Positions 4,311-32,000 of a stretch of 32,000 nucleotides of DNA are shown here, piece after piece. Under the pieces are notes generated by a model. The model searched no databases. It saw only the letters and a list, made by a program, of their open reading frames with translations, and had not been told where the DNA came from. The stretch is from Nitratidesulfovibrio vulgaris str. Hildenborough (GTDB taxonomy: Bacteria; Desulfobacterota; Desulfovibrionia; Desulfovibrionales; Desulfovibrionaceae). The translations under genes were made by a program, and so were the position numbers. The stretch is taken from positions 480,001-512,000 of the forward strand of contig NC_002937.3 of NCBI RefSeq assembly GCF_000195755.1, given 5' to 3'. The number at the start of each line of letters is the position of its first letter. The stretch's first letter is position 1.

Positions 4311-4336
4311 AGGGGCACGGCGTTCGCCGTGCCCCT
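4311..4336 (-). terminator. Stem-loop terminator candidate downstream of echF
   Basis: Perfect 11-bp GC-rich stem AGGGGCACGGC / GCCGTGCCCCT with a GTTC loop, 32 nt after the echF stop. On the minus strand it is followed by TCTCATGTTC, only a weak U tract. Confidence 0.55.
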
Positions 4337-4367
4337 TTGTCAGACATGGTTGCAGGTGCAGCTGCCG

Positions 4368-4769: not shown

Positions 4770-4787
4770 GGTGTTGTCTCCCTGCTG

Positions 4788-5864: not shown

Positions 5865-5876
5865 GGGACCTACCTC

Positions 5877-6269
5877 TTATGCCTTCTTCTGGATGGTGGA
5901 GATCTTGCAGAACGGGGCGGACATGCTGCCCGTGATCTCGTCATCCAGGTAGAGGGTCCTGTTGAAGTCGAGCACCAGACCGTCAAAGGTCAGGCCGAAC
6001 TGGTCACGGGCCTCGTTTTCGATGAGCAGGGCGGCGAAATACACCGGCGTCAGGCTGGGGATGGGCTGGTCCTTGGGGGTCGTCAGCCGGTAGTGCACGA
6101 ACTCGAGGTCCTTGTCGAAGTGGTAGATGATGTCGACGTTGCCGTCGCCAAGATCGACCACCGAGTAGGTGACGAGCCTGTAGTCCTGCTCGAAGAGCGC
6201 CTTGGCCTCGCCGACGATGGCGTCGATGGCGATGGGTTTGGCGTTCAGTATCTCGGTATGGTTGGGCAT
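5877..6269 (-). CDS. echD: Ech hydrogenase subunit D (NuoC-like small soluble subunit)
   Basis: A 130-aa ORF between echC and echE with 12-35 nt spacers. The call rests on position and size in the conserved echABCDEF order, plus the NuoC-like segment YHFDKDLEFVHYRL. Confidence 0.8.
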   Translation of the reverse strand: MPNHTEILNAKPIAIDAIVGEAKALFEQDYRLVTYSVVDLGDGNVDIIYHFDKDLEFVHYRLTTPKDQPIPSLTPVYFAALLIENEARDQFGLTFDGLVLDFNRTLYLDDEITGSMSAPFCKISTIQKKA

Positions 6270-6304
6270 GGTGTTTCCTCGTCTTAACGTCGTGAGAGGC
6301 TTGC

Positions 6305-6778
6305 CTACTCGATGACGGTCACTTTGGGCATCTCGGCGAGACCAAGCTTGGCCTTGACCACCTCAAGCGCGGTGACCACGCCGTCGATGATGGCCTCGGG
6401 CTTGGCCGGGCAGCCCGGCACATAGACGTCGACGGGGATGACCTGGTCGACGCCGCCGACGACGTTGTAGCACTCGCGGAACACGCCGCCCGAACTGCCG
6501 CAGGCCCCGATGGCGATGACGGCCTTGGGGTCGGGCATCTGGTCGTAGATGTTCTTGAGCACCTTCTTGTTGCGATGGTTGACCGTGCCGGTCACCAGCA
6601 GTACGTCGGCGTGCTTGGGGTTGCCCACGTTGATGATGCCGAAGCGTTCGACGTCGAACACGGGGGTAAGGCAGGCGAGCACTTCAATGTCGCAGCCGTT
6701 GCACGAACCACAGTCGAAGTGGACGACCCACGGGGACTTGAGGCGGCCCTTGTTGATCCAGTCTTTGATGAGACTCAT
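6305..6778 (-). CDS. echC: Ech hydrogenase small subunit (NuoB-like, one [4Fe-4S])
   Basis: NuoB/hydrogenase small-subunit cysteine pattern: CGSCNGC ... GACGSSGG ... PGCP. Confidence 0.93.
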   Translation of the reverse strand: MSLIKDWINKGRLKSPWVVHFDCGSCNGCDIEVLACLTPVFDVERFGIINVGNPKHADVLLVTGTVNHRNKKVLKNIYDQMPDPKAVIAIGACGSSGGVFRECYNVVGGVDQVIPVDVYVPGCPAKPEAIIDGVVTALEVVKAKLGLAEMPKVTVIE

Positions 6779-6790
6779 CTCTGCCTCCGC

Positions 6791-7639
6791 CTAGCTGACG
6801 TACAGCCAAAGGATGTTGAACATCGACAGCACGAGGCCCACGCCGAGCGCGCCCTTGAGCATCCACTGCCACGTCATGCGGGCAGTGATGTTGTCGATGA
6901 GCACTTCGATGAAGTAGGTCACAGCCAGAAGCAGCAGCATGCCGGTCAGGCTGGTGTGCCAGAACAGGGTGCACAGGCCGAGAATCAGCACCACGTCGAA
7001 CCAGTGGCCTATCTCAAGCAGTGCAAGGTGCGGGCCCGAGTACTCGGTGAGCACGCCGCGCACGATTTCCTGATGCGCGTGGTGACATGCGGAGATGTCG
7101 AAGGGCGACTTGCGCAGCTTGATGGTCAGCGCATAGCCCAGCGCGATGAACAGGAACGGCATCTGCGTGAGCAGCGGCTTTTCCAGCGCGTAGACGTCGG
7201 AGATCATGAAGCTGCCCGTGGCCATGGAGATGCCCACGAACACGAGGATGATCAGCGGCTCGTAGGCGAGCATCTGGATGAGCTCACGCTGTGCGCCGAC
7301 CTGGCTGTAGGGCGAGTTGACCGACAGGGCACCCACCACCTGGAAGACCGCGCCCACCGTCATCACGAAGAAGAGCAGCAGCAGGTCGCCCTGCATGAAG
7401 AACAGGAAGACCGCAAGGGCGGAGGAGACCACGTAGATGTAGGCGCACAGCACCTGCCACGAGTTGACCACCATCGGCGCTTTGCCGAGGAGCTTCAGCA
7501 CGTCGTAGAAGGGCTGGAGTATGGGCGGCCCGAAGCGCGACTGAAGGCGGGCGGTGATGCGACGGTCGAGACCGGCGATGAGACCGCCGAGGACGGGCGT
7601 GGCCGCAAGCCCGATGAGGGCGAGGATGAGTTTGAACAT
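6791..7639 (-). CDS. echB: Ech hydrogenase membrane subunit B (NuoH-like)
   Basis: A 282-aa polytopic membrane protein with NuoH/HycD-like segments (GLDRRITARLQSRFGPP, SPFDISACHHAHQE). Its ATG overlaps the echA stop by 1 nt (TAATG). Confidence 0.92.
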   Translation of the reverse strand: MFKLILALIGLAATPVLGGLIAGLDRRITARLQSRFGPPILQPFYDVLKLLGKAPMVVNSWQVLCAYIYVVSSALAVFLFFMQGDLLLLFFVMTVGAVFQVVGALSVNSPYSQVGAQRELIQMLAYEPLIILVFVGISMATGSFMISDVYALEKPLLTQMPFLFIALGYALTIKLRKSPFDISACHHAHQEIVRGVLTEYSGPHLALLEIGHWFDVVLILGLCTLFWHTSLTGMLLLLAVTYFIEVLIDNITARMTWQWMLKGALGVGLVLSMFNILWLYVS

Positions 7640-9585
7640 TACAGCATCCCTCCGATCATGAGGATCAGAAGCACGATGGCGACGACGTTGCCGGGCTTGG
7701 TCAGCTGGGCTTCGCCGAAGAGCTTCTCAAGGTAGTAGTTGCCTGCGGCGTTGGGCACGAACTGGTTCATGGGGCCGTTGAAGCCGACCACGCCGTCCTG
7801 CGTCATCTGCGAGCCGCCCATGTAGGGCAGGCTTGCCGCCGAGTCGGGCGTGTTACGCGCGGCCCGCCATGCGTAGTAGAACCCGGCACCGAGGAGCAGG
7901 TACAGCGGGTACACGGCGAAGGCACCCATGGTGTTGCCGATGGTGCCGATGCTCACGCCGTAGGCGCTGGCCTTGGCGTACATGGCGATGGCCGGTTCGA
8001 CGAGGCCGGTGTAGACGAACGGGGCGAGCAGCGAGAGCACCAGCGCGCCACCAACCAGCGAGACGAGGGGCAGCCGGATGGTGATGTCCTGTTCTTCCTG
8101 CATCGGGCCGAAGCCGGGACGCGAGCTGCCCAGCATGATGCCTGCCCAGCGTGCCCAGAACAGCACGGTGAGTGCGCTGCCGAGGGCGATCATGATGACC
8201 AGCAGCGGCATGGCAGACATGGCGCCCGCCGCAGACTCGATGGCCATCCACTTGGCGATGAGCATGCCGAAGGGCGGCAGCATCATGGTGACGATGCCGA
8301 TGACGGTGATGACCGCGGTGCGGGGCATGCGCTCGAAGAGGTTGCGCATGTCCTCGATGTTGCGCGAGCCGATCTTCTGCTCGATGGCACCCACGCACAG
8401 GAAGAGCAGGCCCTTCGAGATGGCGTGGAAGATGATGAGCATCATGGCCGCTGCCACCGAAGCCGCCGTGTTGATGCCGGCACACGCCACGATGAGGCCG
8501 AGGTTGGCGATGGTGGAGTAGGCGAGGATCTTCTTGCCGTTGCTCTGGCCTGCCGCCAGTGCGGAGGTGACGATGAAGGTGAACGCGCCGAACAGCGCCA
8601 CACCCGTGGAGAGGGCCGTCCCCGCATAGCCGGGGGCCATGCGCAGGATGAGGTACACACCGGCCTTGACCATGGTGGAGGAGTGCAGCAGGGCCGACAC
8701 CGGCGTGGGAGCGACCATGGCTCCGCACAGCCAGCTCTGGAAGGGCAGCTGCGCCGACTTGGTGAAACCGGCGAGGCACAGCATGGCCATGGGCAGGAGC
8801 ACGGCGGTGGTCCGCATCTCGGGTTCGACCGCACGGGCGAGGATGTCCTGCACCGAGAGGGTCCCCATGCCCTTCTGGAGGAAGAGCAGCGCGAAGACGA
8901 AGGCGACCCCGCCCACCATGTTCATCCACAGGGCGCGGGTGGCGTTGGTCTTGGCCTCGTCCGTGCCGTCATGCCCGATGAGCATGAACGAGCACAGCGT
9001 GGTGATTTCCCAGAAGAAGTACATCCATGCGAGGTTGTTGGAGAGCACGAGGCCGTTCATGGCGCCGAGGAAGAGCACGACGAAGAAGAAGAACCGGGGC
9101 TGCTTCGTCTGGGGCAGGTGCAGGTGTTCTTCGTGCTCTTTCATGTAGCCGAGGCCGTATACACAGATGAGGCCGCCCACAAAGCTGATGATGAGCACCA
9201 TCGTCAGCGAGAGGCTGTCCACGTAGAAGCCGGGTACGGTCGCGCCATGATCCATCAGGAAGAACTCAAGATAGATAAGGCCAACTATCTGCAGCACAGT
9301 CATGCCCATGATGAGCAGATGCCGCATCTTTGTACCCAGATACAGGATGTAGAAAAGCAGCGCGAAATCGAGGAAGGCTATCAGCCCGTCGAGTCCGATC
9401 CCGAGAAACGACTTCGGGGCGAACATTATCGGGCCGCTTCCTGCCATTCCGAGAGCAGACAGGGCCGTGACCGCCACCGCACCGGGGACGATCAGACGCC
9501 GTGCCGCTTCTCCCCTGACGAAATAGACCGCTAGGGCCGCCAGAAGAGGAAACGCGACGCATCCGAAAACAAGGGTGTCCAGCAT
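7639..9585 (-). CDS. echA: Ech hydrogenase membrane subunit A (NuoL/Mrp antiporter-like)
   Basis: Large polytopic NuoL/M/N-type protein (WEITTLCSFMLIG, ALLHSSTMVKAGVYL). I chose the start at ATG 9585 (MLDTLVFG...), preceded by GAGGTG 4 nt upstream. The ORF-track extension to 9708 is Arg/Pro-rich and lacks a Shine-Dalgarno sequence. Confidence 0.93.
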   Translation of the reverse strand: MLDTLVFGCVAFPLLAALAVYFVRGEAARRLIVPGAVAVTALSALGMAGSGPIMFAPKSFLGIGLDGLIAFLDFALLFYILYLGTKMRHLLIMGMTVLQIVGLIYLEFFLMDHGATVPGFYVDSLSLTMVLIISFVGGLICVYGLGYMKEHEEHLHLPQTKQPRFFFFVVLFLGAMNGLVLSNNLAWMYFFWEITTLCSFMLIGHDGTDEAKTNATRALWMNMVGGVAFVFALLFLQKGMGTLSVQDILARAVEPEMRTTAVLLPMAMLCLAGFTKSAQLPFQSWLCGAMVAPTPVSALLHSSTMVKAGVYLILRMAPGYAGTALSTGVALFGAFTFIVTSALAAGQSNGKKILAYSTIANLGLIVACAGINTAASVAAAMMLIIFHAISKGLLFLCVGAIEQKIGSRNIEDMRNLFERMPRTAVITVIGIVTMMLPPFGMLIAKWMAIESAAGAMSAMPLLVIMIALGSALTVLFWARWAGIMLGSSRPGFGPMQEEQDITIRLPLVSLVGGALVLSLLAPFVYTGLVEPAIAMYAKASAYGVSIGTIGNTMGAFAVYPLYLLLGAGFYYAWRAARNTPDSAASLPYMGGSQMTQDGVVGFNGPMNQFVPNAAGNYYLEKLFGEAQLTKPGNVVAIVLLILMIGGML

Positions 9586-19786: not shown

Positions 19787-20983
19787 CTACAGGCGGGACC
19801 GCAGCACGATATCCGTGATGGGGCCGCGCGACCGTTCGCCCTTGAGGACGATATGGGCGTAGTTGCGGAACCCCTTGAGCTTCTTGACCACCCAGTTGAG
19901 ACCGTTGTTCGATTCGTTGAGGTACTGGTTGTCGACCTGCCGCGTATCGCCAAGGCAGAAGCACTTCACGCCTTCGCCCATGCGCGTGAGAAGGGCGCGT
20001 GCCTCGTTGCGCGAGAGGTTCTGCATCTCGTCGATGATGACCACGGCATTCTCGAGGTTCATGCCACGCACATAGGCTATGGGCTGTATCTCGAACCGTT
20101 TGGGGTTGAGCTTCATGTTGCCCGCCTCCACACTCTGGAAGACGCGGTTGGCAGGGCGCAGGTCATGCAGCTTGAGCAGCAGGTCTTGTACGTAGCGGAT
20201 GTAGGGGTGCATCTTCTCTTCGATGTCACCGGGCAGAAATCCCATGCGCGCGCCTATCTCCACCACCGGTTTGACGAGGTATATCTTGCGATAGGGCGTG
20301 TCCTTGCGTTCGAAGACGAGATGCAGCGCGGCGGCAAGGGCGAGGAAGGTCTTGCCGTATCCGGCTTCGGACTGGATGGAGACGATGTCGATGCCGGGAT
20401 GCAGCATCAGTTCGAAGGCGAGGTTCTGGTGTACGCTGCGGGGAGCCACCTTCCAGACCTCGTGCTGCCATGTGACGGCGCGTGGGCCGTCCGGCCCGTG
20501 GAAGACGGGTTGCCCGTTCTCCCACCGGAAGCAGTTGGGCACGGGGTCTTCACCATCCATGACGAAGCCGGTGTAGCGTTGCGATTCGGACTGGAAAGGC
20601 ACGGAGTCGCGGTAGCCCTCCACCGGGATGCCCCGCACGCGCGCCTTGAGCTGGAGAATGCGGTCGTTGGTGATGAGGATGGGGCTTTCGAGGGCGGAAG
20701 AGGCGATTTCGCCGAGGATGCGGTCGTCACCGATGGTGCCGGGGGAGGGGGCGACATCGTCCGCCAGCGGCGGGAGAAACGTCACCGCCTCGTCACCCAC
20801 CAGTGCGTTGATGGCCTGCCCTACCACATGACCGATGCGCGGGTCGCGCTGGAGGCCGTCCAGCTCGGCAAGTACGGTCCACGGCACATGGATGCGATTC
20901 TCCTCGCCGTTGCGCAATGCGGCGATGCACCGTGGATTCTCGATAAGGACGTTGGTGTCGAGGACGAAGTTCTTCGAGGCCAT
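19787..20983 (-). CDS. PhoH-like ATPase with N-terminal PIN domain (YlaK-type)
   Basis: PIN signature at the N-terminus (FVLDTNVLIE ... TVLAELD ... ITNDRIL). P-loop SEAGYGKTFLALAAAL and the PhoH segment GFLPGDIEEKMHPYIRYVQD ... VVIIDEMQNL. AAGGAG lies 5 nt upstream of the ATG. Confidence 0.9.
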   Translation of the reverse strand: MASKNFVLDTNVLIENPRCIAALRNGEENRIHVPWTVLAELDGLQRDPRIGHVVGQAINALVGDEAVTFLPPLADDVAPSPGTIGDDRILGEIASSALESPILITNDRILQLKARVRGIPVEGYRDSVPFQSESQRYTGFVMDGEDPVPNCFRWENGQPVFHGPDGPRAVTWQHEVWKVAPRSVHQNLAFELMLHPGIDIVSIQSEAGYGKTFLALAAALHLVFERKDTPYRKIYLVKPVVEIGARMGFLPGDIEEKMHPYIRYVQDLLLKLHDLRPANRVFQSVEAGNMKLNPKRFEIQPIAYVRGMNLENAVVIIDEMQNLSRNEARALLTRMGEGVKCFCLGDTRQVDNQYLNESNNGLNWVVKKLKGFRNYAHIVLKGERSRGPITDIVLRSRL

Positions 20984-21195
20984 AACGCTCCTTTTGCGTC
21001 ATGATGCGCTGCCCGTGTCGCTGTTTGAAGGCGGTACGGTGACAGGAACGTGCAACGGGACGCGACGCTACGGGGTGTCTGGCGGTACCGGACGGCTGGT
21101 GGCTTCGGGCTATCGCCGTGCGGGCTCTTGGTCGTGCGGGGAGGCAGGGGCGGTGTCGTCGCGGCTGCGCCGGAGGTGACGCGGAGCATGCCGCG

Positions 21196-21930
21196 CTAGA
21201 ACGTCATGGCCGTGGCACCGTTCAGTTCATGCAGTCCCGTGGCGGCAAGGTGGAAGAGGTCGCCAAGCGTCATGTGGCCGCAGTCGCCATGAACCAGAAG
21301 GCGTTGCAGCACGAGGGCGGTGAGCCATGCGTCGCCTGTGGCGTCGTGTGCGTCAGCCACATCGATGTCGAACACGCGTGCCACGGCGTAGAGGTCGGCG
21401 TCCTTCGTGGCGAGGGCTGCGGCGCGGGCGGGCAGCCTGTGGCGCAGGGCAAGGTGCAGGCCTCGCACGTCGAGGGTGCGGCGGGGCCACGGGCGCACCC
21501 CGTGGCGTTGCGCCGCGGCATCGAGGAATGCGGCATCGAGGCCCACATGCCACCCCGCGGGCACGCTGTCTCCACAGAAGGTGCGAAAGGCGGCAAGGGA
21601 TTCCGCCGGGTCGTCGTGGGTGGCTGTCTCGTCGGGCAGGAGACCGTGCACGGCGATGGCATCCTCTTCCGGGGGCAGATGCGGGCGCATCTTCGCCTCG
21701 AAGCAGCGTCCGGCGAGGATGCGCTCACCGCGCATGGTCACGCCAGCCACGGCGATGATGGCGTCGCGGCGCGGCACAAGCCCCGTCATCTCAAGGTCGA
21801 GTACCACGAACGTTGCGGCGTGGACGGGTTGCCGCAGCCGTTCAGCCTCTCCCGACCACGGGGTGTGCAGCAGCGGCAGCCGCGTCAGTCCGTCCAGCAG
21901 GCGTGAAGCGACGCGTCTCGCCTTGTGCAT
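21196..21930 (-). CDS. DEDDh 3'-5' exonuclease (DnaQ/DNA polymerase III epsilon-like domain protein)
   Basis: ExoI FVVLDLEMTGL, ExoII GWHVGLDAAFL and ExoIII HDATGDAWLTA are all present. I chose the start at ATG 21930 (GAAGG 5 nt upstream, 8 nt after the upstream stop). ATG 21951 is an alternative. The ORF-track start at 22287 lies inside the upstream gene. Confidence 0.85.
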   Translation of the reverse strand: MHKARRVASRLLDGLTRLPLLHTPWSGEAERLRQPVHAATFVVLDLEMTGLVPRRDAIIAVAGVTMRGERILAGRCFEAKMRPHLPPEEDAIAVHGLLPDETATHDDPAESLAAFRTFCGDSVPAGWHVGLDAAFLDAAAQRHGVRPWPRRTLDVRGLHLALRHRLPARAAALATKDADLYAVARVFDIDVADAHDATGDAWLTALVLQRLLVHGDCGHMTLGDLFHLAATGLHELNGATAMTF

Positions 21931-21937
21931 GGTGCCT

Positions 21938-24160
21938 TCAGGGCGCGTCATGGTCTTGCCCTGCCCTTGTCCGCGGAGGCCGCGGCGACACAGTGTCCCG
22001 ACCGTTGACGTGGTGGATGAATCTGGCGACGGCGGCTTCGGCCCTGCGCAGGGCGAGGGCTTCGAGGGGTGACCGCGGGGCGGACGGCATGTCGGTGGGG
22101 ACTTCCGGGGCGGGGCCGCCACGGGCCGCATCGTGGGCGGTGATGAGCAGAAGCACGTCGAGGGCGCATCGTGCTTCAGGGTAGACCGAAGCCGTGTCTG
22201 GCTTCGCCTGTCCTTCTGCAAGGCGGAGGCGCGACCGCGTGCCGACAGCGTCGACGCCAAGGCGCACAGCGAGAAGGCGTACCGCATCCACGAGGGCCTG
22301 AAGCATGGCGTGCGGGTCGGGATGGCTGAGGGCCTGTCCGCGGGTCATCGCATCTGCCGTGGGTGTGTGCCGGATTGCGGGATGGGCGGCGTGACAGACA
22401 GCATGACGGGCGGCATCGCGCACTGTCGAGGTGAGCGATTCCGCACCGTGAAGGGTACGTGCGTCGCACAGGTCTGCGGTTGGGATGCGGGGGGCCAGCA
22501 GTGGCGGGCTGCCCATGCCGGAAGCCGAAAGGCCGGGGGGAGGGGAGGATGCGGTCGCAGACTCCCTAGCCCCACGCCCCGCCCGTGCGAGGGAGATGGA
22601 CGGGGCGCTGCCGTTGACCCCGGCGGCATCACTGGCCTCCCCCTCGGCTTCGTTGGTGGCCTCTCCATTGGCACACAGGGCCATCCATCGGTGCAGGGGC
22701 AGCGTGAGTGCCGGGGCCATGCGTCCTTGCGGGTCGCGGGCAAAGCCCAGTGCCGCGAGTCCGTCGGTGACGAAGGTGGCTACGCTGCGGCAGTAGCGGG
22801 CTGCACGCATTCCTGTCTCAGGGGACGCCTCGTCGGGCGGGGGCATGAAGACGATACCCGTCCGTTGCACGGGGCGCAGCAACGCCTCTTCGCGGGCCGC
22901 CGGCCCGAAGGTCATGAAGGCGTAAGGCACGGGGGGCGGCCCCAGCGTCTCTTCCGCCATGTGGATGAGGCGTAGTGCAAGGCGGTCGTGCAGACGGGCG
23001 GTCACCGTGTGCAGTGCTTCGGGCCCGGCCCCTTCGCAAAGCAGGTCGAAGGCCAGTGCATCGACGCGGGTGGCGACCCCCACGAGGTCGGAAAGCCCCT
23101 TGGCCTCGCGCAGGGCTGCGAAGAGGGCCGCAGGGGATGTCCCGCGCAATGACAGGAGGTCGTCGGAGGACAGCAGACAGGGTGGCGTGTCGTCTGCACG
23201 GCTGTCGTGGGGCGACTCCCGGTGGTGTGTGCTGTCCCTGCCCTGCCCGTCAAACCTGTCGACCCCGGTGTGCCCGTCCCCCCCGCCACGTTCCCTGTCT
23301 CCGTCGTCCCCTTCTTGTGCTGCGCATCTCGCATCGGGGTGAAGCATGGCGTGAGGGGCTTCGCCATGCGCGAGAGTCTCGGGTACGACGGCCACATGGT
23401 GGATGCCACGTGCCGTCATGGCAAGCAGCGCGTCGAGGGCGGGTGTCTCGGGGGGCAAGGTGAAGACCGGCGATGACATGATGCCGCCTACGGGCTGCGC
23501 GCTGTCCCCACCCCGCGCCAGCACACGGGCTGTGAGGTCACGCACGGTGACGATGCCGCAGGGACAGCCGCCTTCGACCACCAGCACGGCACTGCCGCCG
23601 CTGTCGACCATGGCGCGTGCCGCTTCGCCGATGGCGTCGCCGGGGGCGACACACGGGGCGGGGCGGGTGGTGAGCGTTGCCAGCGTGGTATGGTGCCATG
23701 TGTCCGCCTCGTGCCGCGCCAGCAGGGTCGTCCGTCGCATCTCCGCCGCCGCCCTGTCACGAAGGGCCGCGCTGCAACGGGGGGCGAGCAGCGCAACAAG
23801 CCCCGGTGTGGTTGCAAGGGCGTCTGCCACGGCATTCCGTTCCAGAAGGATGCAGAGTACGTCGGTGAGGGCCGTGCAGGGTGCGGTGCCGGTCGTGTCG
23901 GTCGCGCCAGTCGCGTCGTCGAGCCATGCCCCCGGCGCGAGCACCGTTCCGGGCCAGCCGGGGCGAGTGGGGCCTTGCACCATCCCCTTGCGGATGAGGT
24001 GCAGGTGCGTGCCGATGTCATCAGGGGCTGCGGGAAGCCGCCCGCCCCTGGGGACGAAGAGTACCTCCGCCGTCGCGGCGACTCGCCGCAACGCACCCGA
24101 AGGGCAGTCCGAGAAGGGGGCGATGCCGCGCAGGAAGCCGATGATGTCTTCGGGGATCAC
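21938..24160 (-). CDS. cNMP-binding-like / CBS-pair / degenerate DUF294-type nucleotidyltransferase-domain protein
   Basis: N-terminal cyclic-nucleotide-binding-like segment (IIGFLRGIAPFSDCPSGALRRVA...HLIRKGMV). Two CBS motifs follow (AVLVVEGGCPCGIVTVRDL; GIHHVAVV...SSDDLL); the second is interrupted by a ~65-aa Asp/Gly/His/Arg-rich insert. After that comes a region colinear with the DUF294 core of the upstream paralog, but with the catalytic residues replaced. It starts 8 nt after the upstream gene. Confidence 0.75.
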   Translation of the reverse strand: MIPEDIIGFLRGIAPFSDCPSGALRRVAATAEVLFVPRGGRLPAAPDDIGTHLHLIRKGMVQGPTRPGWPGTVLAPGAWLDDATGATDTTGTAPCTALTDVLCILLERNAVADALATTPGLVALLAPRCSAALRDRAAAEMRRTTLLARHEADTWHHTTLATLTTRPAPCVAPGDAIGEAARAMVDSGGSAVLVVEGGCPCGIVTVRDLTARVLARGGDSAQPVGGIMSSPVFTLPPETPALDALLAMTARGIHHVAVVPETLAHGEAPHAMLHPDARCAAQEGDDGDRERGGGDGHTGVDRFDGQGRDSTHHRESPHDSRADDTPPCLLSSDDLLSLRGTSPAALFAALREAKGLSDLVGVATRVDALAFDLLCEGAGPEALHTVTARLHDRLALRLIHMAEETLGPPPVPYAFMTFGPAAREEALLRPVQRTGIVFMPPPDEASPETGMRAARYCRSVATFVTDGLAALGFARDPQGRMAPALTLPLHRWMALCANGEATNEAEGEASDAAGVNGSAPSISLARAGRGARESATASSPPPGLSASGMGSPPLLAPRIPTADLCDARTLHGAESLTSTVRDAARHAVCHAAHPAIRHTPTADAMTRGQALSHPDPHAMLQALVDAVRLLAVRLGVDAVGTRSRLRLAEGQAKPDTASVYPEARCALDVLLLITAHDAARGGPAPEVPTDMPSAPRSPLEALALRRAEAAVARFIHHVNGRDTVSPRPPRTRAGQDHDAP

Positions 24161-24168
24161 GTGTCACC

Positions 24169-25893
24169 TCACCCGATGAGATGCAGCCCGAAGCGGTGTT
24201 CGAGCCATGACGCGAAGGTATCCACGACGATGAGGCAGCGCCGCAGCCCTTCGCGTTCCAGCGGGGCGAGGGCTCCCACGTCCAGCAGGGCGCTGCCGCC
24301 TCCCTTCGTGGCCTTCGCGGGGGAGGTTCCCCCGGAGGATGGTGCGGCTGCCATGACCAGCGATGTCGTGCCGGTTGCGTCGTGCAGGGCCTTTTCATCT
24401 GTCATCATGGCTTCCGTTGCCCACGACGGACCTTTCTGCTGCCGGTCTACGGGCTGGGCGTGGGCCTCGTGCGCGACCTGTCCCCGCAGGCGAAGCCCGA
24501 GCAGGACGTCCCACGCATGGGCGATGTCGTCGCCGAGTTCCCCGCCGGGAATGCCGCATTGCCTGAGGGCGGCAAGGCGCGACGCGGTATCGGAGGGTGA
24601 CGTTATACCCCGGCCGGCAGCGTCGTTGTGCGATGCGTTGCCCGAGACGGATGCGCCGGCCCGTTCAAGGGCGAGCGCTCTCGCCCCCTGCATCAGGGTG
24701 AAGAGACCGCACCGTTTGAGGTCGATGTACTCGCCGTCCTTGCCGTCGCGGATGACTGGCAGCCGGTTGAACATGCCGAGCTTCGGAGCATGGCGCACGG
24801 CTTCGCGTCCCATGAGTCGCAGGGGCAGCGAGGTTGTGGCAAGGCGGTGGCAGAGGTGGTCGGTCAGGCGCGGGCAGAGGTCGAATCCGTCGTTGAGCCC
24901 GCGCAGGTCGGCAAGGATGGAGAGTGTGACCACGGCAGGGGCGTCGGGGGTGCGGCAGGCCCCGTCCACGACAGTGCGCCAGCTTCGCATGGTGCGTCGC
25001 CACGCGGGGCTGGAGGGCATGATGCCGTGAGGGCAGGGCGGCAGCCCCGCATGGACGAGCATCTGTGCCAGTGCCTCGCCGAACCGGGCGAACCATGCCG
25101 CCACTGCGTCAGGGGGGATGTCGCCGCTGGCGTCGGACAGCACGAGGGCCACATCCTGGTCGGTGGCGAAGAACTGTTCCCGTCGGGCGTGGCTGCCCAG
25201 CACCCCCACGGCGAATGGCGATGGAGGCGGGGTGGGCATGGTCTGGAGTGCGAGGTGGGCGGCGCGTGTCACCAGCCTGTCGCGCAGCCCTGCGACGATG
25301 CGACCCAGTCGTACTGCAGCGATGCCTTCGGACGTGTATCGGCGGATGAGACGATGCAGGGTCTCGTGCGCCATGCCGAGTGCGGTGGCGTCGGTGGAGG
25401 TGTCGATGGCCGAAGCCACGGCAAAGGGGCTTGCCGTATCACCGGACAACAGGTCGCGTTCCTCGAGGATGCCCCGGGGCGTGCCCTCGCCGGATACCAC
25501 CAGCAGATGGCGTATGCCGTGTTCGGCCATGCGAAGCACGGCCTCGCCCGTGGTCGAGCCTTCACCGATGGTGACGACCCCTCCCCGCATGACCCGCCCG
25601 AGTGGGCGCGCGTGGGCCATGCCCCTGTGTTCGGCGACGAGGCGGGTGATGTCGCGTTCGGTGATGATGCCTTCGGGGCGGGTCGCCTCGCCCACCAGCA
25701 CCGCCGAGACCTGCGCTTCTACCATACGCGCTGCCGCTTCGCCCAGTGACGTCTCACGGTCGAGGGTCAGTGGTGGATGCAATACCAGCGAGGAGAGGGG
25801 GGTGAGGCATGAGGGCGGTGAGGTGTCGGCACCCCCGGGGTCTCTCCGTCCGGGTGACGTTGGCGGGGCGGCGGGCCGTGGTTCCTTTGTCAT
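24169..25893 (-). CDS. CBS-pair / DUF294 putative nucleotidyltransferase (GlnD-like NTase fold) with DUF294_C region
   Basis: CBS pair (VSAVLVGEATRPEGIITERDI; IRHLLVVSGEGTPRGILEERDLL) followed by the NTase signature VLGSHARREQFFATDQDVALVL (GS...DxD). Confidence 0.85.
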   Translation of the reverse strand: MTKEPRPAAPPTSPGRRDPGGADTSPPSCLTPLSSLVLHPPLTLDRETSLGEAAARMVEAQVSAVLVGEATRPEGIITERDITRLVAEHRGMAHARPLGRVMRGGVVTIGEGSTTGEAVLRMAEHGIRHLLVVSGEGTPRGILEERDLLSGDTASPFAVASAIDTSTDATALGMAHETLHRLIRRYTSEGIAAVRLGRIVAGLRDRLVTRAAHLALQTMPTPPPSPFAVGVLGSHARREQFFATDQDVALVLSDASGDIPPDAVAAWFARFGEALAQMLVHAGLPPCPHGIMPSSPAWRRTMRSWRTVVDGACRTPDAPAVVTLSILADLRGLNDGFDLCPRLTDHLCHRLATTSLPLRLMGREAVRHAPKLGMFNRLPVIRDGKDGEYIDLKRCGLFTLMQGARALALERAGASVSGNASHNDAAGRGITSPSDTASRLAALRQCGIPGGELGDDIAHAWDVLLGLRLRGQVAHEAHAQPVDRQQKGPSWATEAMMTDEKALHDATGTTSLVMAAAPSSGGTSPAKATKGGGSALLDVGALAPLEREGLRRCLIVVDTFASWLEHRFGLHLIG

Positions 25894-25959
25894 GAGTCCC
25901 TGCCCTTTCAGGTTGCATCACTGTTGCCGGGGACATGTGGTGCGCTTTCGCCATCCGGT

Positions 25960-25996
25960 GGCGTATCCCTCCCGTCGTCGCAGGGAGGGATACGCC
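25960..25996 (-). promoter_or_regulatory. Intercistronic 14-bp perfect stem-loop between actP and the DUF294 gene
   Basis: GGCGTATCCCTCCC / GGGAGGGATACGCC with a 9-nt loop, centred in the 148-nt actP-DUF294 spacer. No U tract follows on the coding (minus) strand. Confidence 0.5.
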
Positions 25997-26041
25997 GTCT
26001 TGCGTTCGTCCTGTCATCCCATCATCGGCATCAGAGGGGAA

Positions 26042-27589
26042 TCACTCCGCGCCTACGCCGAGGTAGTTGCGAATCTTCTGGGCGTCGAAGCGGGCGGACT
26101 CCTCACTGTCGGGGCGCAACAGCGACCCGGCGATTCCGGCCATGAACGCGGCGGGCATGGAAAGCAGGGCCGGGTTTTTGAGCGGGAAGGGGGCCGTGCC
26201 GAGGTGGAACACATCCGTCCAGACGGTGGGGCTGACGATGATGAGGCCCACGGCGAGAACGCCCCCGGTGACAATGGCCCACACTGCGCCGGTGGTGCTG
26301 CAGCCGCGCCACATGATGGACAGGAGGAGTGCGGGCAGGTTGGCACTGGCGGCGATGGCGAAGGCCAGTCCGACCATGAAGGCCACGTTCTGTCCCTTGA
26401 AGGCGATGCCCAGCAGCATGGCGATGACGCCGAGGGCGATGGTGGCGCGTTTGGCCACGCGGACCTCATCCGCCTCGTTCGACTGTCCGCCCTTGAAGAC
26501 ATTGGCGTAGAGGTCGTGGGAGAAGGTCGTCGCCCCTGCCAGCGTCAGACCCGCGACCACGGCGAGGATGGTGGCGAAGGCGACGGCGGCGATGAAGCCG
26601 AGGAACATGGTGCCACCTGTCACTTCCGCCAGCAGCGGGGCCGCCATGTTGCCGCCCTTGTCGAACATGCGGATGGCGTCGGGGCCGACAAGCATCATGG
26701 CACCGAAGCCGATGATGAAGGTGAGCACGTAGAAGTACGAGATGAGACCGGTGGCATAGAACACCGATTTACGGGCGGCGCGGGCGTCGGGCACCGTGTA
26801 GAAGCGCATGAGGATGTGCGGAAGCCCTGCCGTGCCGAACATGAGTGCCATGCCCAGCGAGATGGCGTCCCACGGGTTGGACACGAGGCCGCCGGGGGCC
26901 AGCATCGCCTCGCCGTGCTTCGCGGCTGCGGTCACGAAGAGACGGGTGGGGCTGTAGTCGAACTGCGCGAGAACCATCACCACCATGGCCGTGGCACCGC
27001 CAAGGAGCAGCACCGCCTTGGTTATCTGCACCCATGTCGTGGCCAGCATGCCGCCGAAGAGCACATAGGCCATCATGATGAAGCCCACGGCCACCACGGC
27101 GTATTCGTAGCGGATGCCGAACATGAGCTGCACCAGTGCTCCCGACCCCACCATCTGGGCGATGAGGTAGAAGCACACCGTCATCAGCGACCCGCACGCG
27201 GCAGCGATGCGTATGGGCTTCTGCCGCAGCCTGTAGGCCACGACATCCGCGAAGGTGTACCGGCCGAGATTGCGCAGGGGTTCGGCGATGAGGAACATCA
27301 TGAGCGGCCAGCCCACGAGAAAGCCGATGGAGTAGATGAGGCCGTCGTACCCCTTCAGCGACACCAGTCCGGCGATGCCGAGAAACGAGGCCGCACTCAT
27401 GTAGTCGCCCGCGAGGGCGAGGCCGTTCTGCAGTCCGGTGACGCTACGCCCCGCCGCATAGAATTCCGAGGCCGAACGGCTGCGGCGTGCCGCGAACCAC
27501 GTGATGGCCAACGTGAAGGCGACGAAGGCGAAGAAGAAGAGGATGGAGACGGCGTTGGGCTGTCCGAGAGTGCTGGTGAACTCAGGCAT
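26042..27589 (-). CDS. actP: Cation/acetate symporter ActP (sodium:solute symporter family)
   Basis: A 515-aa SSF transporter with the ActP-type N-terminus ...[34 protein letters not shown]. Its ATG overlaps the upstream DUF485 gene by 8 nt, the classical yjcH-actP arrangement. Confidence 0.93.
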
Positions 27590-27899
27590 GGTCGTCCCCC
27601 TTCATGCTTTCGACGATGGTTCGAACGTCGCTGTCGTATTTCGTGTTGGCCCACCATACGTAGATGCCCGTGAGAAGCGACGCGGAGATGATGATGCCGA
27701 TGCCGAGTGGAATGCCCACGGTGAGACCGCTTTCGAGACGGGCGGTGAGCAGGTCGCGTCCGAAGGCCAGCAGCATGATGAACCCGAAGTAGATGACCAG
27801 CATGAGCGCGGTCATGGACATCGAGACGGTGCGGCTGCGGCGGACGAACAGGTCGAAGTGACGTTCGTCGGGGGCCTTGTGCGTTGTCGGGCCTGACAT
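27582..27899 (-). CDS. yjcH: DUF485 inner-membrane protein (YjcH-like, ActP partner)
   Basis: A 105-aa two-TMS protein ([29 protein letters not shown] ... [20 protein letters not shown]) directly upstream of actP. Start at ATG 27899 with AAGGAGG 6 nt upstream. Confidence 0.85.
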
Positions 27900-27906
27900 G
27901 GGATGC

Positions 27907-27938
27907 CTCCTTTCCTGTGTGTTCCGATAGGAAAGGAG
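27907..27938 (-). promoter_or_regulatory. Leader hairpin that pairs the Shine-Dalgarno sequence of the DUF485-actP operon
   Basis: On the mRNA strand: CUCCUUUCCU (27938-27929), a 12-nt loop, then AGGAAAGGAG (27916-27907). This is a perfect 10-bp stem whose 3' arm is the AAGGAGG ribosome-binding site, 6 nt before the AUG. Confidence 0.55.
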
Positions 27939-28229
27939 CATATGTGTATTTTTGTATGGTTTCACTCCCATATCGGCAAGCGGCGCCCTGACATGGGACG
28001 AGTGCCGTTAACGGGCGCCAGGGCAGGGTGAATGCCCATGGGCGGCGCTGCCCGCGCTGGGCGTTGGGCGTCTGGGGCAGGTGTGAACGGTCATCCGCAC
28101 GTGGTGGGCGGTGACCCGCCGTCGGGTGGCAAGACCAGACGGTGAACGGCATCAAGGCGGGCCGATGCGTCGCCAGTGGCGGGAAATGGCATGACGACGC
28201 CGAGAAGCATGGCGTGGGGCGGCACGCGG

Positions 28230-28258
28230 TTGCCACTGCGCCACGGTTGTCCTATAAG
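28230..28258 (+). promoter_or_regulatory. Candidate sigma70-type promoter for gmd (TTGCCA-17-TATAAG)
   Basis: -35 TTGCCA at 28230-28235, 17-nt spacer, -10 TATAAG at 28253-28258, about 35 nt upstream of the gmd ATG. A GGAG Shine-Dalgarno sequence lies at 28283-28286. This is a hexamer match only. Confidence 0.4.
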
Positions 28259-28292
28259 GGGCCGATAGTCTGACCTCTTTACGGAGAATTTC

Positions 28293-29438
28293 ATGAAGCG
28301 CGCGCTCATCACCGGCATCACCGGGCAGGACGGGGCCTACCTCGCCGAATTCCTGCTTGCCAAAGGCTATGAGGTGCACGGCATCAAGCGCCGGGCCTCG
28401 CTTTTCAATACCGACCGCATCGACCACCTCTATCAGGACCCGCACGAGAAGCGCAGACGGTTCATCCTGCATTACGGCGACATGACCGATGCCAGCAATC
28501 TCATCCGCATCGTGCAGGAGGTGCAGCCCGACGAGGTCTACAACCTCGCGGCGCAGAGTCATGTGAAGGTGTCGTTCGAACTGCCTGAATATACGGCCAA
28601 TGTCGACGCACTGGGGCCGTTGCGGCTGCTTGAGGCCATTCGCATCCTCGGCCTGGAGAAGAGCACGCGCTTCTATCAGGCCTCCACATCGGAGCTTTTC
28701 GGGCTGGTGCAGGAAGTGCCGCAGACGGAACGCACCCCCTTCTATCCCCGTTCCCCCTACGCCTGCGCCAAACTCTATGCCTACTGGATTGCGGTCAACT
28801 ACCGCGAGGCCTACGGCATGTACGCCTGCAACGGCATCCTCTTCAATCACGAGTCGCCTGTGCGCGGCGAGACCTTCGTCACGCGCAAGATTACCCGTGC
28901 GCTGGCGCGGACGGTGCTTGGGCTGACCAACGGTCTGCATCTCGGCAATCTCAACGCCCTGCGCGACTGGGGGCACGCCCGTGACTACGTGGAGATGCAG
29001 TGGCTCATGTTGCAACAGGACAAGCCCGAAGATTTCGTCATCGCCACCGGACATCAGTATTCGGTGCGCGACTTCGTGGCCACGGCTGCAGGTGAACTCG
29101 GTCTTGCACTGGAGTGGCACGGCGAGGGCGTGGACGAGAAGGGTGTTGTCACGTCGGTGGATGCGAAGGCGCTGGAACGGTTGACCGGTGCCGCCGGGGC
29201 TTCGTGCCCCGTGAAGCCGGGCGACGTTCTGGTGCAGGTCGACCCGCGCTACTTCCGTCCCACCGAGGTCGAGACGCTGCTGGGCGACCCGACGCGGGCC
29301 CATGAACGCCTCGGATGGAAACCGCGGACGACCTTCGCCGACATGGTGGCGGAGATGGTCCGCGAGGACGTGAACCTCGCCCGCCGCGACGCCGTATGCA
29401 AGGTGGCCGGTTTCAGGGCCTTCAGTTACAACGAATAG
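28293..29438 (+). CDS. gmd: GDP-mannose 4,6-dehydratase
   Basis: Near-canonical Gmd sequence: [47 protein letters not shown], catalytic [33 protein letters not shown]. Confidence 0.97.
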
Positions 29439-32000
29439 TCTTCACGGGTGCGGCCTTCGGGCCGCACCCGCCGCCCCAGGGTCGCAAGGGCCTTCTCCAG
29501 TGCTGTGAAGTCGTAGGGCTTCTGCACATAGGCGTCGGCCCCTTTCGCCATGAACCGTTCTCGGTCGCCCTGCATGGCGTGTGCGGTCACGGCCACGACC
29601 GGAATGGTGGGGGGCAGTCCCGCGACCTGTCCCGTACGGATGGCCTGCAAGGTTGCCATGCCATCGAGGACGGGCATCTGGATGTCGAGGAACACGGCAT
29701 CGAAGTGCTGTTCCGCGAGTGCCTGCAACGCCTGACTGCCGTCTTCCACGGCATGGGCGCGGTGACCCAGCTGTTCCAGCATCCGTGTCAGGGTGAGGCG
29801 ATTGATGGCATCGTCTTCCGCCACGAGCAGGTACAGGGCATGCCTGTCGCCTTCATCCTCCGTCTCCTTGACCTTCCTGCCCTGCGGGCGCCGGGTCTTT
29901 CCGACCGGGATGGCGAAATGCATGGCCGTACCCATGTCCGGCGCGCTCTCCACTTCGATGCTGCCCCCGAAGAGTTCCATGAGTCTGCATACGATGCCAA
30001 GGCCGAGTCCCAGTCCGCTGTGACGGCGTGTGTAAGAGCCGTCCAGTTGGGTGAAGGGCTGGAAGATGCTCTCGATTCTGTCTTCGGGGATGCCGGGACC
30101 GGTGTCGCGTACGGTACAGAACAGGACGATGGCGTCGCCGCGCATGGAGGCTGTGGAAAACTCCACACGTACGCCACCCTTCTCCGTGAACTTGACCGCG
30201 TTGCCGACAAGGTTGAACAGCGTCTGCCGCAAGCGCAGAGGGTCTGTCCGAACGTAGGTGGGGGTACCGGGGGCAATGGTCGTCTCCAGCGTGATGCCCT
30301 TGCCTGTGGCGTCGAGGCTGAAGGTGGAGAACACCTCGTCCACCAGTTCCCTTATGTCGCAGGGGATGGCTTCGATGACAAGCTTGCCCGCCTCGATGCG
30401 GGAAAGGTCGAGGATGTCGCTGAGCAGTCGCACGAGGTTCTGCCCGGAACGGATGGCGGTGGTCACATACTGCCTCTGTTCGGGAGAGAGGGACGACAGT
30501 TCGAGCAGTTGTAACATGCCCAGCGCTCCGTTGAGCGGAGTGCGCAATTCGTGGCTGACGTTGGCAAGGAACTCGCTTTTGGTACGATTTGCCTCTTCGG
30601 CGCGTTTGCTCGCCTCGCACATGGATTCCAGCGCGTTGACCGCATCGGTGATGTCATAGCAGTAGCCGATGAAACCGGAGAAGGTGCCGTCGAGGTCGGG
30701 AAGGGGCTTGCCGCAGTCGACGAGCCAGCGGAATTGACCGTCGTGCCGCTTCAGGCGGTAGTTCATCTCGAATGCCTGCTGGAGTGCGAAGGCTTTCTGA
30801 TAGATGCTGACGCAACGGTCGTAATCGTCGGGGTGCACTCCCCCGGCCCAGCCGTAGCCATACTCCTGTTCCATGGTCCGGCCCGTGAAGTCGAGCCATG
30901 TGGTGTTGAACCAGTCGCATGCACCAGTGGTGTCGCTACGCCAGATGAGCATGGGGGCGTGGTCGAGGATGCGCAGATACCTGTCGGCGGCATTATGCAT
31001 GCGCGTCGCGTCGTATCGTCGTTCCGTGGCGTCCACGGCAACGCCGTACCATTCCGTGCCGCCCCCCCGTGCCGGAGTGGAGGTGGCCTGTACATGAACC
31101 CATTTTGTACCGCCTGTGCAATGCAGGGGGATTTCGACATCCACAGGCGTCCCTTCCCCGTCTGTCGCAGAGATGCCCGCAAGGATATGTGGCACGACAT
31201 CCGGGCCGAACAAGGCGACCAGCGCGTGCGGGTCGGCTTTGATCTCTTCCTGCGACAGCCCGCACAACTCGACCGTTCCGCCGCCGACGTACTCGACCCT
31301 GATGTTACCATCATGCGGGGCGCACAACTTGAACACCACGCCGGGAACGTTACGCGAGACCTCGTCAAGAGAACGTGCCTCCTGCCGCATGGCTTCGGCA
31401 TGTTTGACGTGGGTGATGTCCATGAAGGTGAGCAGCATATGCTCTGTCGCCCCTGTCTCATCACGGACGGCATGGATGCGTTGCTGGCACCACCTGCCAT
31501 CCGTGAGGCGTGCCTCGCTGTCGTGTGTTCCCCCTTCACTGAGGCCAAGAGCCAGCGATTTGAAGAGATTGTCAGGTTCCGCAAGGCACGAGGCGATCTG
31601 TTGCAGCGGCCTTCCCACATCGTGGGGTTGCAGGTGGAAGATTGCAGACATGCCCGCATTGAAACGCCGCACCCGTAGCGATTCGTCCAGCGAGGCGATG
31701 GCGATGGGAATCGTGTCGAAGAGTTGAGCGTAGTCTTCTCCAAGAATGCGTAGCTGGTCGTTCTTGCGCTCGAATTCGGCGTTGACGGTGTAGAGTTCCT
31801 CATTGATGGAATGAAGCTCTTCGTTCGTCGCCTGCAGTTCTTCATTGGCCGAGAGCAGTTCCTCGTTGGTGGCCTGCAATTCCTCGTTGGTGACGTGCAC
31901 CTGTTCGATACTGTCACGCAGGCTCGAACGTGTCTCGGCAAGTTCCGCTTCGAGTTCGGCGACCCGTGACGCCAGCAGTCCTGTGCCGTGCCCCGTCGCT
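29426..32000 (-). CDS. Hybrid sensor: coiled-coil / multiple PAS / histidine kinase / receiver (5' end outside window)
   Basis: The frame is open to the window edge (...[34 protein letters not shown]...). It carries PAS-like modules, the H-box [17 protein letters not shown], HATPase N/G boxes ([23 protein letters not shown]), and a C-terminal receiver [11 protein letters not shown]...[13 protein letters not shown]...KP. Confidence 0.92.

Follow-up and report, generated by a model that had tools for sequence, protein, structure and literature searches.

Two of the described systems closest to the locus analysed here are arrangements of genes. One is the acs-yjcH-actP operon of Escherichia coli, in which a DUF485 gene (yjcH) lies directly upstream of, and overlaps, the gene for an ActP-type symporter of the SSF family. 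The other is a pair of genes in which a COG2905 nucleotidyltransferase (NTase) is encoded directly upstream of an RNase_T exonuclease, in the company of SSF monocarboxylate symporters and the acs regulon. Examples of the pair are PP_0354/PP_0353, PA3233/PA3232, Pflu5625, Sama_1525 of S. amazonensis, and Psest_0349 of P. stutzeri, the last two being the genes that Price et al. name "COG2905 (RNase T domain protein)". The families that make up this pair (PF00571, PF03445, PF10335, and PF00929) are the same as those found in a 32,000-nt stretch of the Nitratidesulfovibrio vulgaris (D. vulgaris) Hildenborough genome (positions 480,001-512,000 of NC_002937.3; hereafter the window, to which all coordinates refer). 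There, a minus-strand operon encodes a DUF485 protein, an ActP-like symporter, two proteins of the NTase family, here called NT1 and NT2, and an exonuclease, Exo.

In Pseudomonas aeruginosa, PA3232-PA3235 are co-induced ~16-fold on propionate (PMC9765439); an earlier reading of the window from its letters alone (the original prediction) had correctly named this cluster. In P. putida, ErdR acts directly on the PP_0354/PP_0353 operon, and no other transcript depends more strongly on MxtR/ErdR. Deletions of these genes do not affect growth on acetate, and each of the NTase and exonuclease deletions lowers growth on propionate; the exonuclease deletion, unlike that of the NTase, causes the pyruvate defect also seen on loss of actP-I or yjcH (PMC9927547; bioRxiv 10.64898/2026.09.07.749794). 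A Pflu5625 mutant of P. fluorescens had no phenotype (PMC5715377). In random-barcode transposon sequencing of S. amazonensis and P. stutzeri, the DUF4212 transporter subunit shows cofitness with a "COG2905 (RNase T domain protein)" gene close by, and Price et al. speculated that symporter expression requires this gene (10.1101/072470). The original prediction had tied the module to acetate and took the lack of an acetate phenotype as an argument against itself. In P. putida such a phenotype is indeed lacking, but those on pyruvate and propionate are present, and therefore the link is to monocarboxylate transport in general. The module has been studied in Pseudomonas, where deletion phenotypes and direct CrbS/R (MxtR/ErdR) control are published; still, the statement of the original prediction that no biochemical function has been assigned holds in the literature as of the September 2026 preprint.

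In N. vulgaris, DVU0749 is an orphan regulator of the LytR type, encoded in one operon with the acetyl-CoA synthetase DVU0748. By DNA-affinity-purification-chip analysis, Rajeev et al. (2011, PMC3333781) identified four targets of this regulator, which include "DVU0443-0448" as well as DVU2969, a paralogue of acs. The operon in the window is probably this "DVU0443-0448" target. Its ActP protein is an exact match to AAS94929.1 of N. vulgaris Hildenborough, and the neighboring PhoH protein to AAS94925.1; the clusters of NT1 and NT2 include AAS94928.1 and AAS94927.1, so that, by accession order, the locus tags probably run from DVU0447 (DUF485) to DVU0443 (Exo). Rajeev et al. (2011) is the only paper we found in the D. 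vulgaris literature on DVU0443-0447, and we found no statement of fitness data for these genes in D. vulgaris. The general association and the operon's link to acs are already published, unlike the make-up of the three distal genes.

Open reading frame (ORF) calling guided by third-position GC content, together with Pfam and NCBIfam scans, yielded five co-directional minus-strand genes in the order DUF485, actP-like, NT1, NT2, Exo (Table 1). The original prediction had named all of them, in this order and on this strand, with essentially the same coordinates. The five genes are best explained as one monocarboxylate (acetate/pyruvate-type) uptake operon of N. vulgaris, and the three distal ones as a lineage-specific three-part version of the COG2905 sensor-NTase/DEDDh-exonuclease module. 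Compared to the E. coli operon, acs is absent and three regulatory genes are added. Compared to the COG2905 pair, the single sensor-NTase is represented by two proteins, the predicted active NT1, which has no cyclic nucleotide (cNMP) domain, and NT2, which lacks both the catalytic carboxylates and the phosphate-binding residues of its cNMP-like domain. The gene acs is missing not only from the operon but from the whole 32-kb window, as is any pair of an SLC5-STAC histidine kinase and a LuxR-type regulator (CrbS/R type); unlike in Pseudomonas, the regulator on record for the D. vulgaris operon is the LytR-type orphan DVU0749.

The DUF485 and actP reading frames share an 8-nt overlap. NT1 and NT2 are separated by 8 nt, and the alternative ATG of Exo at 21951, which is the start in the public gene calls (251 aa), would produce a 14-nt overlap with NT2, both as predicted; the spacer between NT2 and Exo is, however, 7 rather than 8 nt. 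The 148-nt gap between actP and NT1, which harbors a 14-bp hairpin, had not been mentioned. The best NCBIfam match of the symporter is the ActP model PRK09395 (728.4 bits, cut-off 750); TIGR02711 gives 646.7 bits against a cut-off of 1099, and the MctC model 601.7 bits against 670. These scores lie just or well below the ActP and MctC cut-offs, and we describe the protein as ActP/MctC-like, with a monocarboxylate as its putative substrate.

An intact and a degenerate nucleotidyltransferase

NT1 is comprised of a CBS pair, a DUF294 NTase domain, and a DUF294_C domain, and has no cNMP domain. The Pfam cut-offs applied here and below were 21 bits for PF03445, 22.5 for PF10335, 27.5 (gathering threshold) for PF00027, and 24 for PF00929. 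In the alignment, the polymerase-beta-type signature of NT1 is intact (G233 S234 / D245 Q246 D247 / D329). The best non-CBS Foldseek matches of its AlphaFold2 model (pLDDT 83.7, pTM 0.80) are the GlnE structures 1v4a (E 1e-6, 459 columns, TMt 0.56) and 3k7d (E 1.1e-5) and Legionella DrrA/SidM (6yx5_B, E 1.1e-6); the GlnE matches cover both GlnE domains, while those to the CBS part include AcuB. Thus, the NT1 model has the NTase plus helical substrate-binding fold common to GlnE and DrrA, and GlnE, moreover, also unites two homologous NTase domains. Pfam places DUF294_C and the C-terminal domains of GlnD and GlnE in one clan (PMC3710099). By sequence, on the other hand, the similarity is marginal, as the sequence profile reaches GlnE alone (E 0.26), and the locus provides no PII/GlnB or glutamine synthetase context. 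Going by the model, NT1 would belong with the GlnE/GlnD/DrrA families at the fold level only, and at this level the "GlnD-like NTase" of the original prediction is supported as being of the GlnD/GlnE type. GlnE, GlnD, and DrrA are protein nucleotidyltransferases; for NT1, a protein substrate is a proposal. A sequence search found no solved structure of a DUF294 domain.

An anti-phage (CBASS-like) role was considered and rejected, since PADLOC has no match for NT1 or NT2, and Exo matches only a generic DEDDh model.

NT2, judged by its sequence, is a pseudo-NTase, a member of the family by homology and not by catalytic signature. Its active site reads GP...VQR in place of GS...DQD, so that both carboxylates of the DxD motif are gone, while the third Asp and the invariant Gln are kept in the alignment. 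PF10335 scores 17.5 bits, which is under the cut-off, and the AlphaFold2 model (pLDDT 71.3) keeps the helical C-terminal domain, broken by disordered inserts. Two low-complexity inserts are predicted to be disordered, one at residues 266-323 (~23194-23365), within the CBS pair, and the other at residues 501-555 (~22498-22660), within the NTase domain; both are shorter or missing in the 56-58%-identical orthologue P0023. The cNMP domain that the original prediction assigned to the N-terminus of NT2 is sub-threshold in Pfam (N-terminus scanned alone, PF00027 E 9.5e-4, 19.5 bits), but is supported by other evidence: the region aligns with canonical cNMP-CBS-DUF294 proteins, and Foldseek matches the model to cyclic nucleotide-binding (CNB) domains of PKG, CNG, and M. 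loti and to the mycobacterial cAMP-regulated acyltransferase (matches include 5l0n with TM 0.63, 1u12, and 4orf). In the alignment, NT2 lacks the phosphate-binding Glu and Arg of a cNMP domain.

We rejected the possibility that NT2 is a decaying pseudogene. It has an intact frame of 740 codons, and its dN/dS relative to a 98.6%-identical strain is 0.35, compared to 0.38 for NT1, 0.18 for Exo, and 0 for ActP. Its orthologues at 93, 79, 75, 56-58 and, more distantly, 34-41% identity all have degenerate sites (VQR, MQR, TQC, RQW, QQH, and RQR). The sequence is consistent with NT2 being a putative regulatory pseudoenzyme.

The gene order ActP, NT1-like, NT2-like, RNase_T is kept wherever upstream DNA is available (loci L001-L003 and L085-L088), and the arrangement recurs in relatives down to ~35-40% NT2 identity, which means that it is not due to chance. 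In L003 and L085, the catalytic motif of the NT1-like protein was confirmed to be intact. A neighbor-joining tree of the NTase core, constructed without bootstrap, recovers NT1-like and NT2-like proteins as two monophyletic clades that are congruent inside and are not sisters; NT1 groups with cNMP-less forms fused to the exonuclease. Compared directly, NT1 and NT2 score ~50 bits, whereas each scores 100-190 bits against other subfamilies. The low mutual score and separate clades led us to reject a recent NT1/NT2 duplication. By their sequences, the two are old subfamilies co-inherited across a clade. The original prediction of a "duplicated and diverged" sensor-NTase was therefore misleading. 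From its place directly upstream of Exo, we conclude that NT2 descends by position from the canonical gene.

Other loci with two copies were also found. The triad of dead copy, active copy, and exonuclease, as far as can be told from the motifs, recurs independently in a different gene order in L093, where the dead protein (GH...HPA) is followed by RNase_T and then by the active cNMP-less CBS-NTase (GS...DQD). Among the 80 canonical loci described below, two, L013 (13820-19699) and L034 (5506-11869), carry two intact DUF294 copies each; the second copy in L013 is without a cNMP domain and adjoins a VC_2705-type symporter and Acs. Finally, L089 and L090 (Logan DRR358089 and DRR321573), a Desulfovibrio-like contig, have a lone degenerate cNMP-CBS-DUF294 gene (GE...GQE) followed by RNase_T, with a divergent DUF485-(ActP) on one side and, on the other, a convergent gene for acetyl-CoA synthetase; no active NTase partner was found on the 8.6-kb contig. 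The co-inherited pair of active and dead NTases, its recurrence in another order, and the writer/eraser reading of the phenotypes presented below look new, as we found no prior description of them.

The exonuclease and the module across genomes

Exo has all DEDDh residues (D45, E47, D132, H195, and D200), and they are conserved in 71 aligned neighbors. It scores 57.7-59.2 bits with PF00929; the best NCBIfam match, PRK09145, at 101 bits, is below its cut-off. The PDB relatives are the PolC exonuclease domain, Cas2-DEDDh, and DnaQ. As a DnaQ proofreading subunit Exo was rejected, given its scores of 18.6 bits with TIGR01406 (cut-off 222.7) and 44.4 bits with TIGR00573 (cut-off 71.5), and the lack of replisome genes nearby.

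To describe the module more broadly, we used canonical cNMP-CBS-DUF294 proteins in a GTDB-wide scan, which gave at least 583 confirmed relatives, and retrieved neighborhoods of the best 80 loci. These come from Pseudomonadota, Actinomycetota, Rhodothermota/Bacteroidota, Desulfobacterota, Nitrospirota, Acidobacteriota, and Chloroflexota, and are not phylogenetically independent, ~14 of them being from Corynebacterium. The number of 50%-identity clusters related to NT2 is 3345 at E <= 1e-3 and 885 at E <= 1e-10. By ORF extraction and Pfam, the next same-strand ORF after the NTase encodes an RNase_T exonuclease in 61 of the 73 testable loci, and BLAST clustering gives an Exo-family ORF in 73/80. 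The divergent Exo of the window, when used as a tblastn query, recovered exonucleases in only ~22/80 loci, which the ORF extraction and Pfam revealed to be a sensitivity artefact. Single-chain Exo-CBS-DUF294 fusions of ~700 aa are common. The 80 loci have 86 canonical NTase ORFs, and at least 70 of them show the catalytic pattern GS...DQD...D without any deviation, the other 16 being off the search pattern.

An SSF symporter is present within 10 kb in 24/80 loci. Four of these symporters are ActP/MctC-like, two of them with DUF485, while ~20 are of another SSF type, identified as VC_2705/TIGR03648 in the three representatives tested. Acetate-CoA ligase (Acs) is encoded within 10 kb in ten of the 80 loci. 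Among several thousand genes, a genome typically has a handful for SSF proteins and one or two for Acs; hence, by a rough estimate, the frequencies of SSF and Acs near the module are about tenfold above expectation. The recurrence of a cNMP/CBS/DUF294 protein with a DnaQ-like exonuclease, which the original prediction had put forward, is borne out by these counts. The suggested tie to actP stands as linkage to SSF and Acs in general, but the transporter is usually of the VC_2705/DUF4212 type, not ActP; the combination of ActP and DUF485 in the window differs in this respect from the more frequent VC_2705 with DUF4212.

One more locus, L094 (699-10927), has an Exo-CBS-DUF294 fusion between DUF4212-SSF, a 1173-aa PAS-HK-REC kinase, and two GerE-type response regulators. 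It looks like a compact island of transporter, two-component system, and module.

These data bear on two alternative explanations. According to the first, nothing about the locus is special: NT2 is decaying, Exo is a proofreading or repair subunit of the DNA-polymerase-III-epsilon type, and adjacency to actP is accidental. The name "DNA polymerase III subunit epsilon" does occur among database names of family members, and NT2 is fast-evolving and has long low-complexity inserts. We nevertheless consider this explanation extremely improbable, given the intact frame, the dN/dS of NT2, and the degenerate site kept in its orthologues down to ~35% identity, the gene order kept across the clade, the position of Exo next to the NTase in most testable loci or fused to it elsewhere, and, again, the absence of replisome genes nearby.

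According to the second, Exo is the true effector, for instance an RNase acting on transporter or metabolic mRNAs, and the DUF294 proteins are its ligand-sensing allosteric regulators, NTase catalysis being secondary or vestigial. Degenerate motifs are indeed common near NT2 (~35 of 150 representatives), dead forms occur with Exo alone in L089/L090 and L092, and the P. putida exonuclease deletion has the stronger phenotype. However, the motif is intact in ~110 of the 150 nearest representatives, as it is in the canonical ORFs counted above, and the dead cNMP copy usually stands beside an active CBS-NTase (the window, L003, L085, L086, L087, and L093), which argues that catalysis is needed. On balance, this explanation seems unlikely.

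A possible mechanism

Judged at the level of folds, the locus may work like reversible nucleotidylylation of the GlnE/GlnD type. The reading that we tentatively adopt, and hold as a fair possibility rather than an expectation, is that monocarboxylate uptake is tuned by NT1 as writer, NT2 as a catalytically dead sensor, and Exo as eraser. NT1 would transfer a nucleoside monophosphate (NMP) from NTP onto a hydroxyl of its target, most likely a protein of the uptake or activation pathway such as ActP, DUF485, or Acs, and its CBS pair would read adenine-nucleotide or energy status. NT2, a dead paralogue with a CBS pair and a cNMP-like fold, would assist NT1, Exo, or both, either in regulation or as a scaffold. 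Exo would hydrolyse the NMP phosphodiester and release 5'-NMP. The mark would be inhibitory, and the three distal genes would set the amount of transport activity in the cell. What we infer is which substrate is modified, in which direction the mark acts, and that NT1 and NT2 interact; the gene content, the state of the catalytic residues, the conservation, the neighborhoods, and the similarity of folds come from the analysis, and the regulation and phenotypes from publications.

With an inhibitory mark, a mutant without the eraser would resemble one without the transporter, and removal of the writer would be nearly silent, as in the published asymmetry; such a mark would also explain why a dead sensor copy usually has an active copy beside it. 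Removal of an NMP from a protein hydroxyl is the same chemistry as removal of a 3'-terminal nucleotide, and a DEDDh eraser is thus chemically plausible. This would distinguish the proposed hydrolase from the known ways of reversing such marks, which are phosphorolysis by the adenylyl-removing domain of GlnE, the HD domain of GlnD, and a PP2C-like enzyme (SidD). A further parallel is with the mycobacterial cAMP-regulated protein acetyltransferase (cNMP plus GNAT, 4orf), Pat/CobB, and AcuABC, where a nucleotide sensor is likewise coupled to reversible modification of an acetate-activation enzyme, and the N-terminal model of NT2 matches 4orf among the CNB domains; however, in that control of Acs the transferase fold is different, the group is acetyl and not NMP, and the likeness is by analogy only. 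The most specific version, in which the transporter or Acs is under a reversible protein-nucleotidylylation switch, with a DnaQ-type DEDDh de-nucleotidylylase and a writer split, in the Desulfovibrio clade, into NT1 and the gating sensor NT2, is improbable; if true, it would be the first use of the DEDDh exonuclease fold as a de-nucleotidylylase.

Several observations weigh against this model. We know of no precedent for a DEDDh exonuclease removing NMP from a protein. An RNA substrate would suit the near-universal pairing or fusion with an exonuclease of nucleic-acid type no less well. In its fold, NT1 resembles GlnE only modestly (TM 0.43-0.56). The lone degenerate NTase in L089/L090, found together with Exo, DUF485-ActP, and Acs, means that NTase catalysis may be dispensable, or that the partner is encoded elsewhere; among the 150 nearest 50%-identity representatives, ~35 have degenerate motifs and ~110 intact ones. 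No transporter is encoded within 10 kb of 70% of canonical loci. As for genetics, the P. putida phenotypes are mild and could be affected by polarity, and the sentence of Price et al. is ambiguous as to which gene, NTase or exonuclease, is cofit.

The alternative substrate is RNA. In this case NT1 would add non-templated nucleotides to the 3'-end of a specific RNA, Exo would trim them, and the balance would set expression of the transporter; the RNA could be the mRNA of the transporter, a small RNA, or a tRNA, and its stability or translation would be altered. Opposition of a polymerase-beta-type NTase and a DEDD-family 3'-5' exonuclease at the same 3'-end is known from CCA-adding enzyme and RNase T, and from Gld2 and PARN. 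Exo is a bona fide nuclease of the RNase_T/DnaQ DEDDh type with all catalytic residues, often fused to the NTase, and Price et al. (10.1101/072470) speculated on a role in symporter expression, as did Henriquez et al. on one in mRNA degradation. Furthermore, leaders of the transporter operons are structured: in the window, the Shine-Dalgarno (SD) sequence and the AUG are sequestered in the predicted fold (see below), and DUF4212-SSF operons are preceded by a TIGR03647 riboswitch candidate (PMC6429828). On the other side, the NT1 fold and its C-terminal domain match protein AMPylators of the GlnE/DrrA type and differ from class I/II CCA-adding enzymes and poly(A) polymerases; no CCA-adding enzyme, poly(A) polymerase, or cGAS-like enzyme appeared in the top 50 Foldseek matches of NT1, and Pfam and NCBIfam scans detected no RNA-binding domain in the module proteins. 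A 3'-5' exonuclease would not be able to act directly on a 5' leader. Bacterial 3' tails usually promote decay, and loss of a trimming enzyme would not obviously abolish expression. We regard RNA tailing and trimming, the main rival, as a possibility to be kept in mind, although the odds are against it.

NT1 could also synthesize a small linear or cyclic (oligo)nucleotide or a conjugate as a messenger of energy status, acting on the transporter or Acs, which Exo would degrade as Orn and NrnC degrade pGpG. Polymerase-beta-fold NTases include messenger synthases, and short oligonucleotides are degraded by DEDDh enzymes; the making and breaking activities often occur in one chain or next to each other, a pattern that the Exo-CBS-NTase fusions fit, and the CBS and cNMP sensor domains lie upstream of the catalytic domain. 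However, there is no structural likeness to CD-NTases or cGAS in the top matches and no PADLOC/CBASS-type match, the neighborhood clusters contain no conserved receptor or effector candidate, and the asymmetry of exonuclease and NTase phenotypes in P. putida is predicted no better than by the writer/eraser model. A messenger of this kind is therefore a doubtful proposition, to which we give little weight.

Under the writer/eraser model, the D. vulgaris triad parts sensing (NT2) from catalysis (NT1), and mutant libraries and genetics exist for D. vulgaris Hildenborough. COG2905/DUF294 with an exonuclease is among the more widespread two-gene modules of undefined biochemistry, present in at least seven phyla, and it sits where acetate, pyruvate, lactate, and propionate enter metabolism. 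These entry steps are relevant for pathogens (the CrbS/R regulon), sulfate reducers, syntrophs, and acetate-based bioproduction. If the exonuclease is a protein de-NMPylase, or the pair an RNA tail editor for one transporter, this would represent a new regulatory principle; otherwise the module would be an ordinary accessory regulator.

Noncoding elements and flanking genes

The DUF485 gene starts with the ATG at 27899, which is preceded by a strong SD sequence, GGAAAGGAGG. The leader upstream of it (Table 1) contains an anti-SD, CUCCUUUCCU, perfectly complementary to the SD AGGAAAGGAG. A 12-nt start-codon box, TCCCATGTCAGG, is present twice, at 27998-27987 and 27903-27892, and the segment GAUAUGGGA is complementary to both copies; as it can pair with either of them, alternative helices are allowed. 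The upstream box opens a 10-codon upstream ORF (MSGRRLPIWE). According to the predicted fold, the ribosome-binding site in the DUF485-actP leader can be masked by the leader itself. We looked for a similar hairpin in the leader of the more distant L089 and did not find one. Matches to the sigma-70 promoter and intrinsic-terminator consensus sequences were not found on the operon strand, and the Rfam search of 20900-28400 at E <= 1 gave three chance eukaryotic matches only.

The second noncoding element is the hairpin between actP and NT1. The whole 148-nt gap folds with -58.3 kcal/mol (z -3.0), while in relatives the two genes abut or overlap (4-nt overlap in L086, 2-nt gap in L087). The hairpin may be an mRNA-stabilising or attenuating element that sets the transporter:regulator ratio.

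Table 1. Features of the operon and its surroundings, and the reordered triad of L093. Coordinates refer to the window, except in the row for L093, where they refer to that locus.
Feature	Position	Strand	Details
DUF485 (YjcH-like) small membrane protein	27582-27899	-	105 aa; PF04341 E 2e-26; ActP partner
ActP/MctC-like cation:monocarboxylate symporter (SSF)	26042-27589	-	515 aa; PF00474 E 2e-106, 356 bits
NT1	24169-25893	-	574 aa; two CBS; PF03445 131.1 bits; PF10335 73.6 bits
NT2	21938-24160	-	740 aa; GTG start; CBS pair; PF03445 97 bits
Exo, DEDDh 3'-5' exonuclease (RNase_T/DnaQ-like)	21196-21930	-	244 aa; PF00929 57-59 bits
Divergent intergenic region DUF485/gmd	27900-28292	.	presumed promoter and regulator-binding region
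Structured leader of DUF485-actP	27890-27998	-	inverted repeats; RNAfold -32.4 kcal/mol, z -4.0
GC-rich perfect 14-bp hairpin without U-tract	25960-25996	-	inside the actP-NT1 gap
PIN-PhoH (YlaK-like) ATPase/nuclease	19787-20983	-	212 nt 3' of Exo
Hybrid sensor CheB-CheR-PAS-HisKA-HATPase-REC	29426-32000	-	upstream of gmd; runs past the window end
L093 triad (GCA_905168795.1)	3735-7853		dead cNMP-CBS-NTase, RNase_T, active cNMP-less CBS-NTase

The flanking genes are unrelated to the operon; they encode the PIN-PhoH protein, adenine deaminase, Gmd, and the large PAS/CheB/CheR hybrid kinase. PIN-PhoH, which follows Exo on the same strand, was considered as a sixth operon member and rejected, as this synteny is confined to the species. 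The counterpart of the truncated hybrid sensor in L001 (128-4735) is 1535 aa long.

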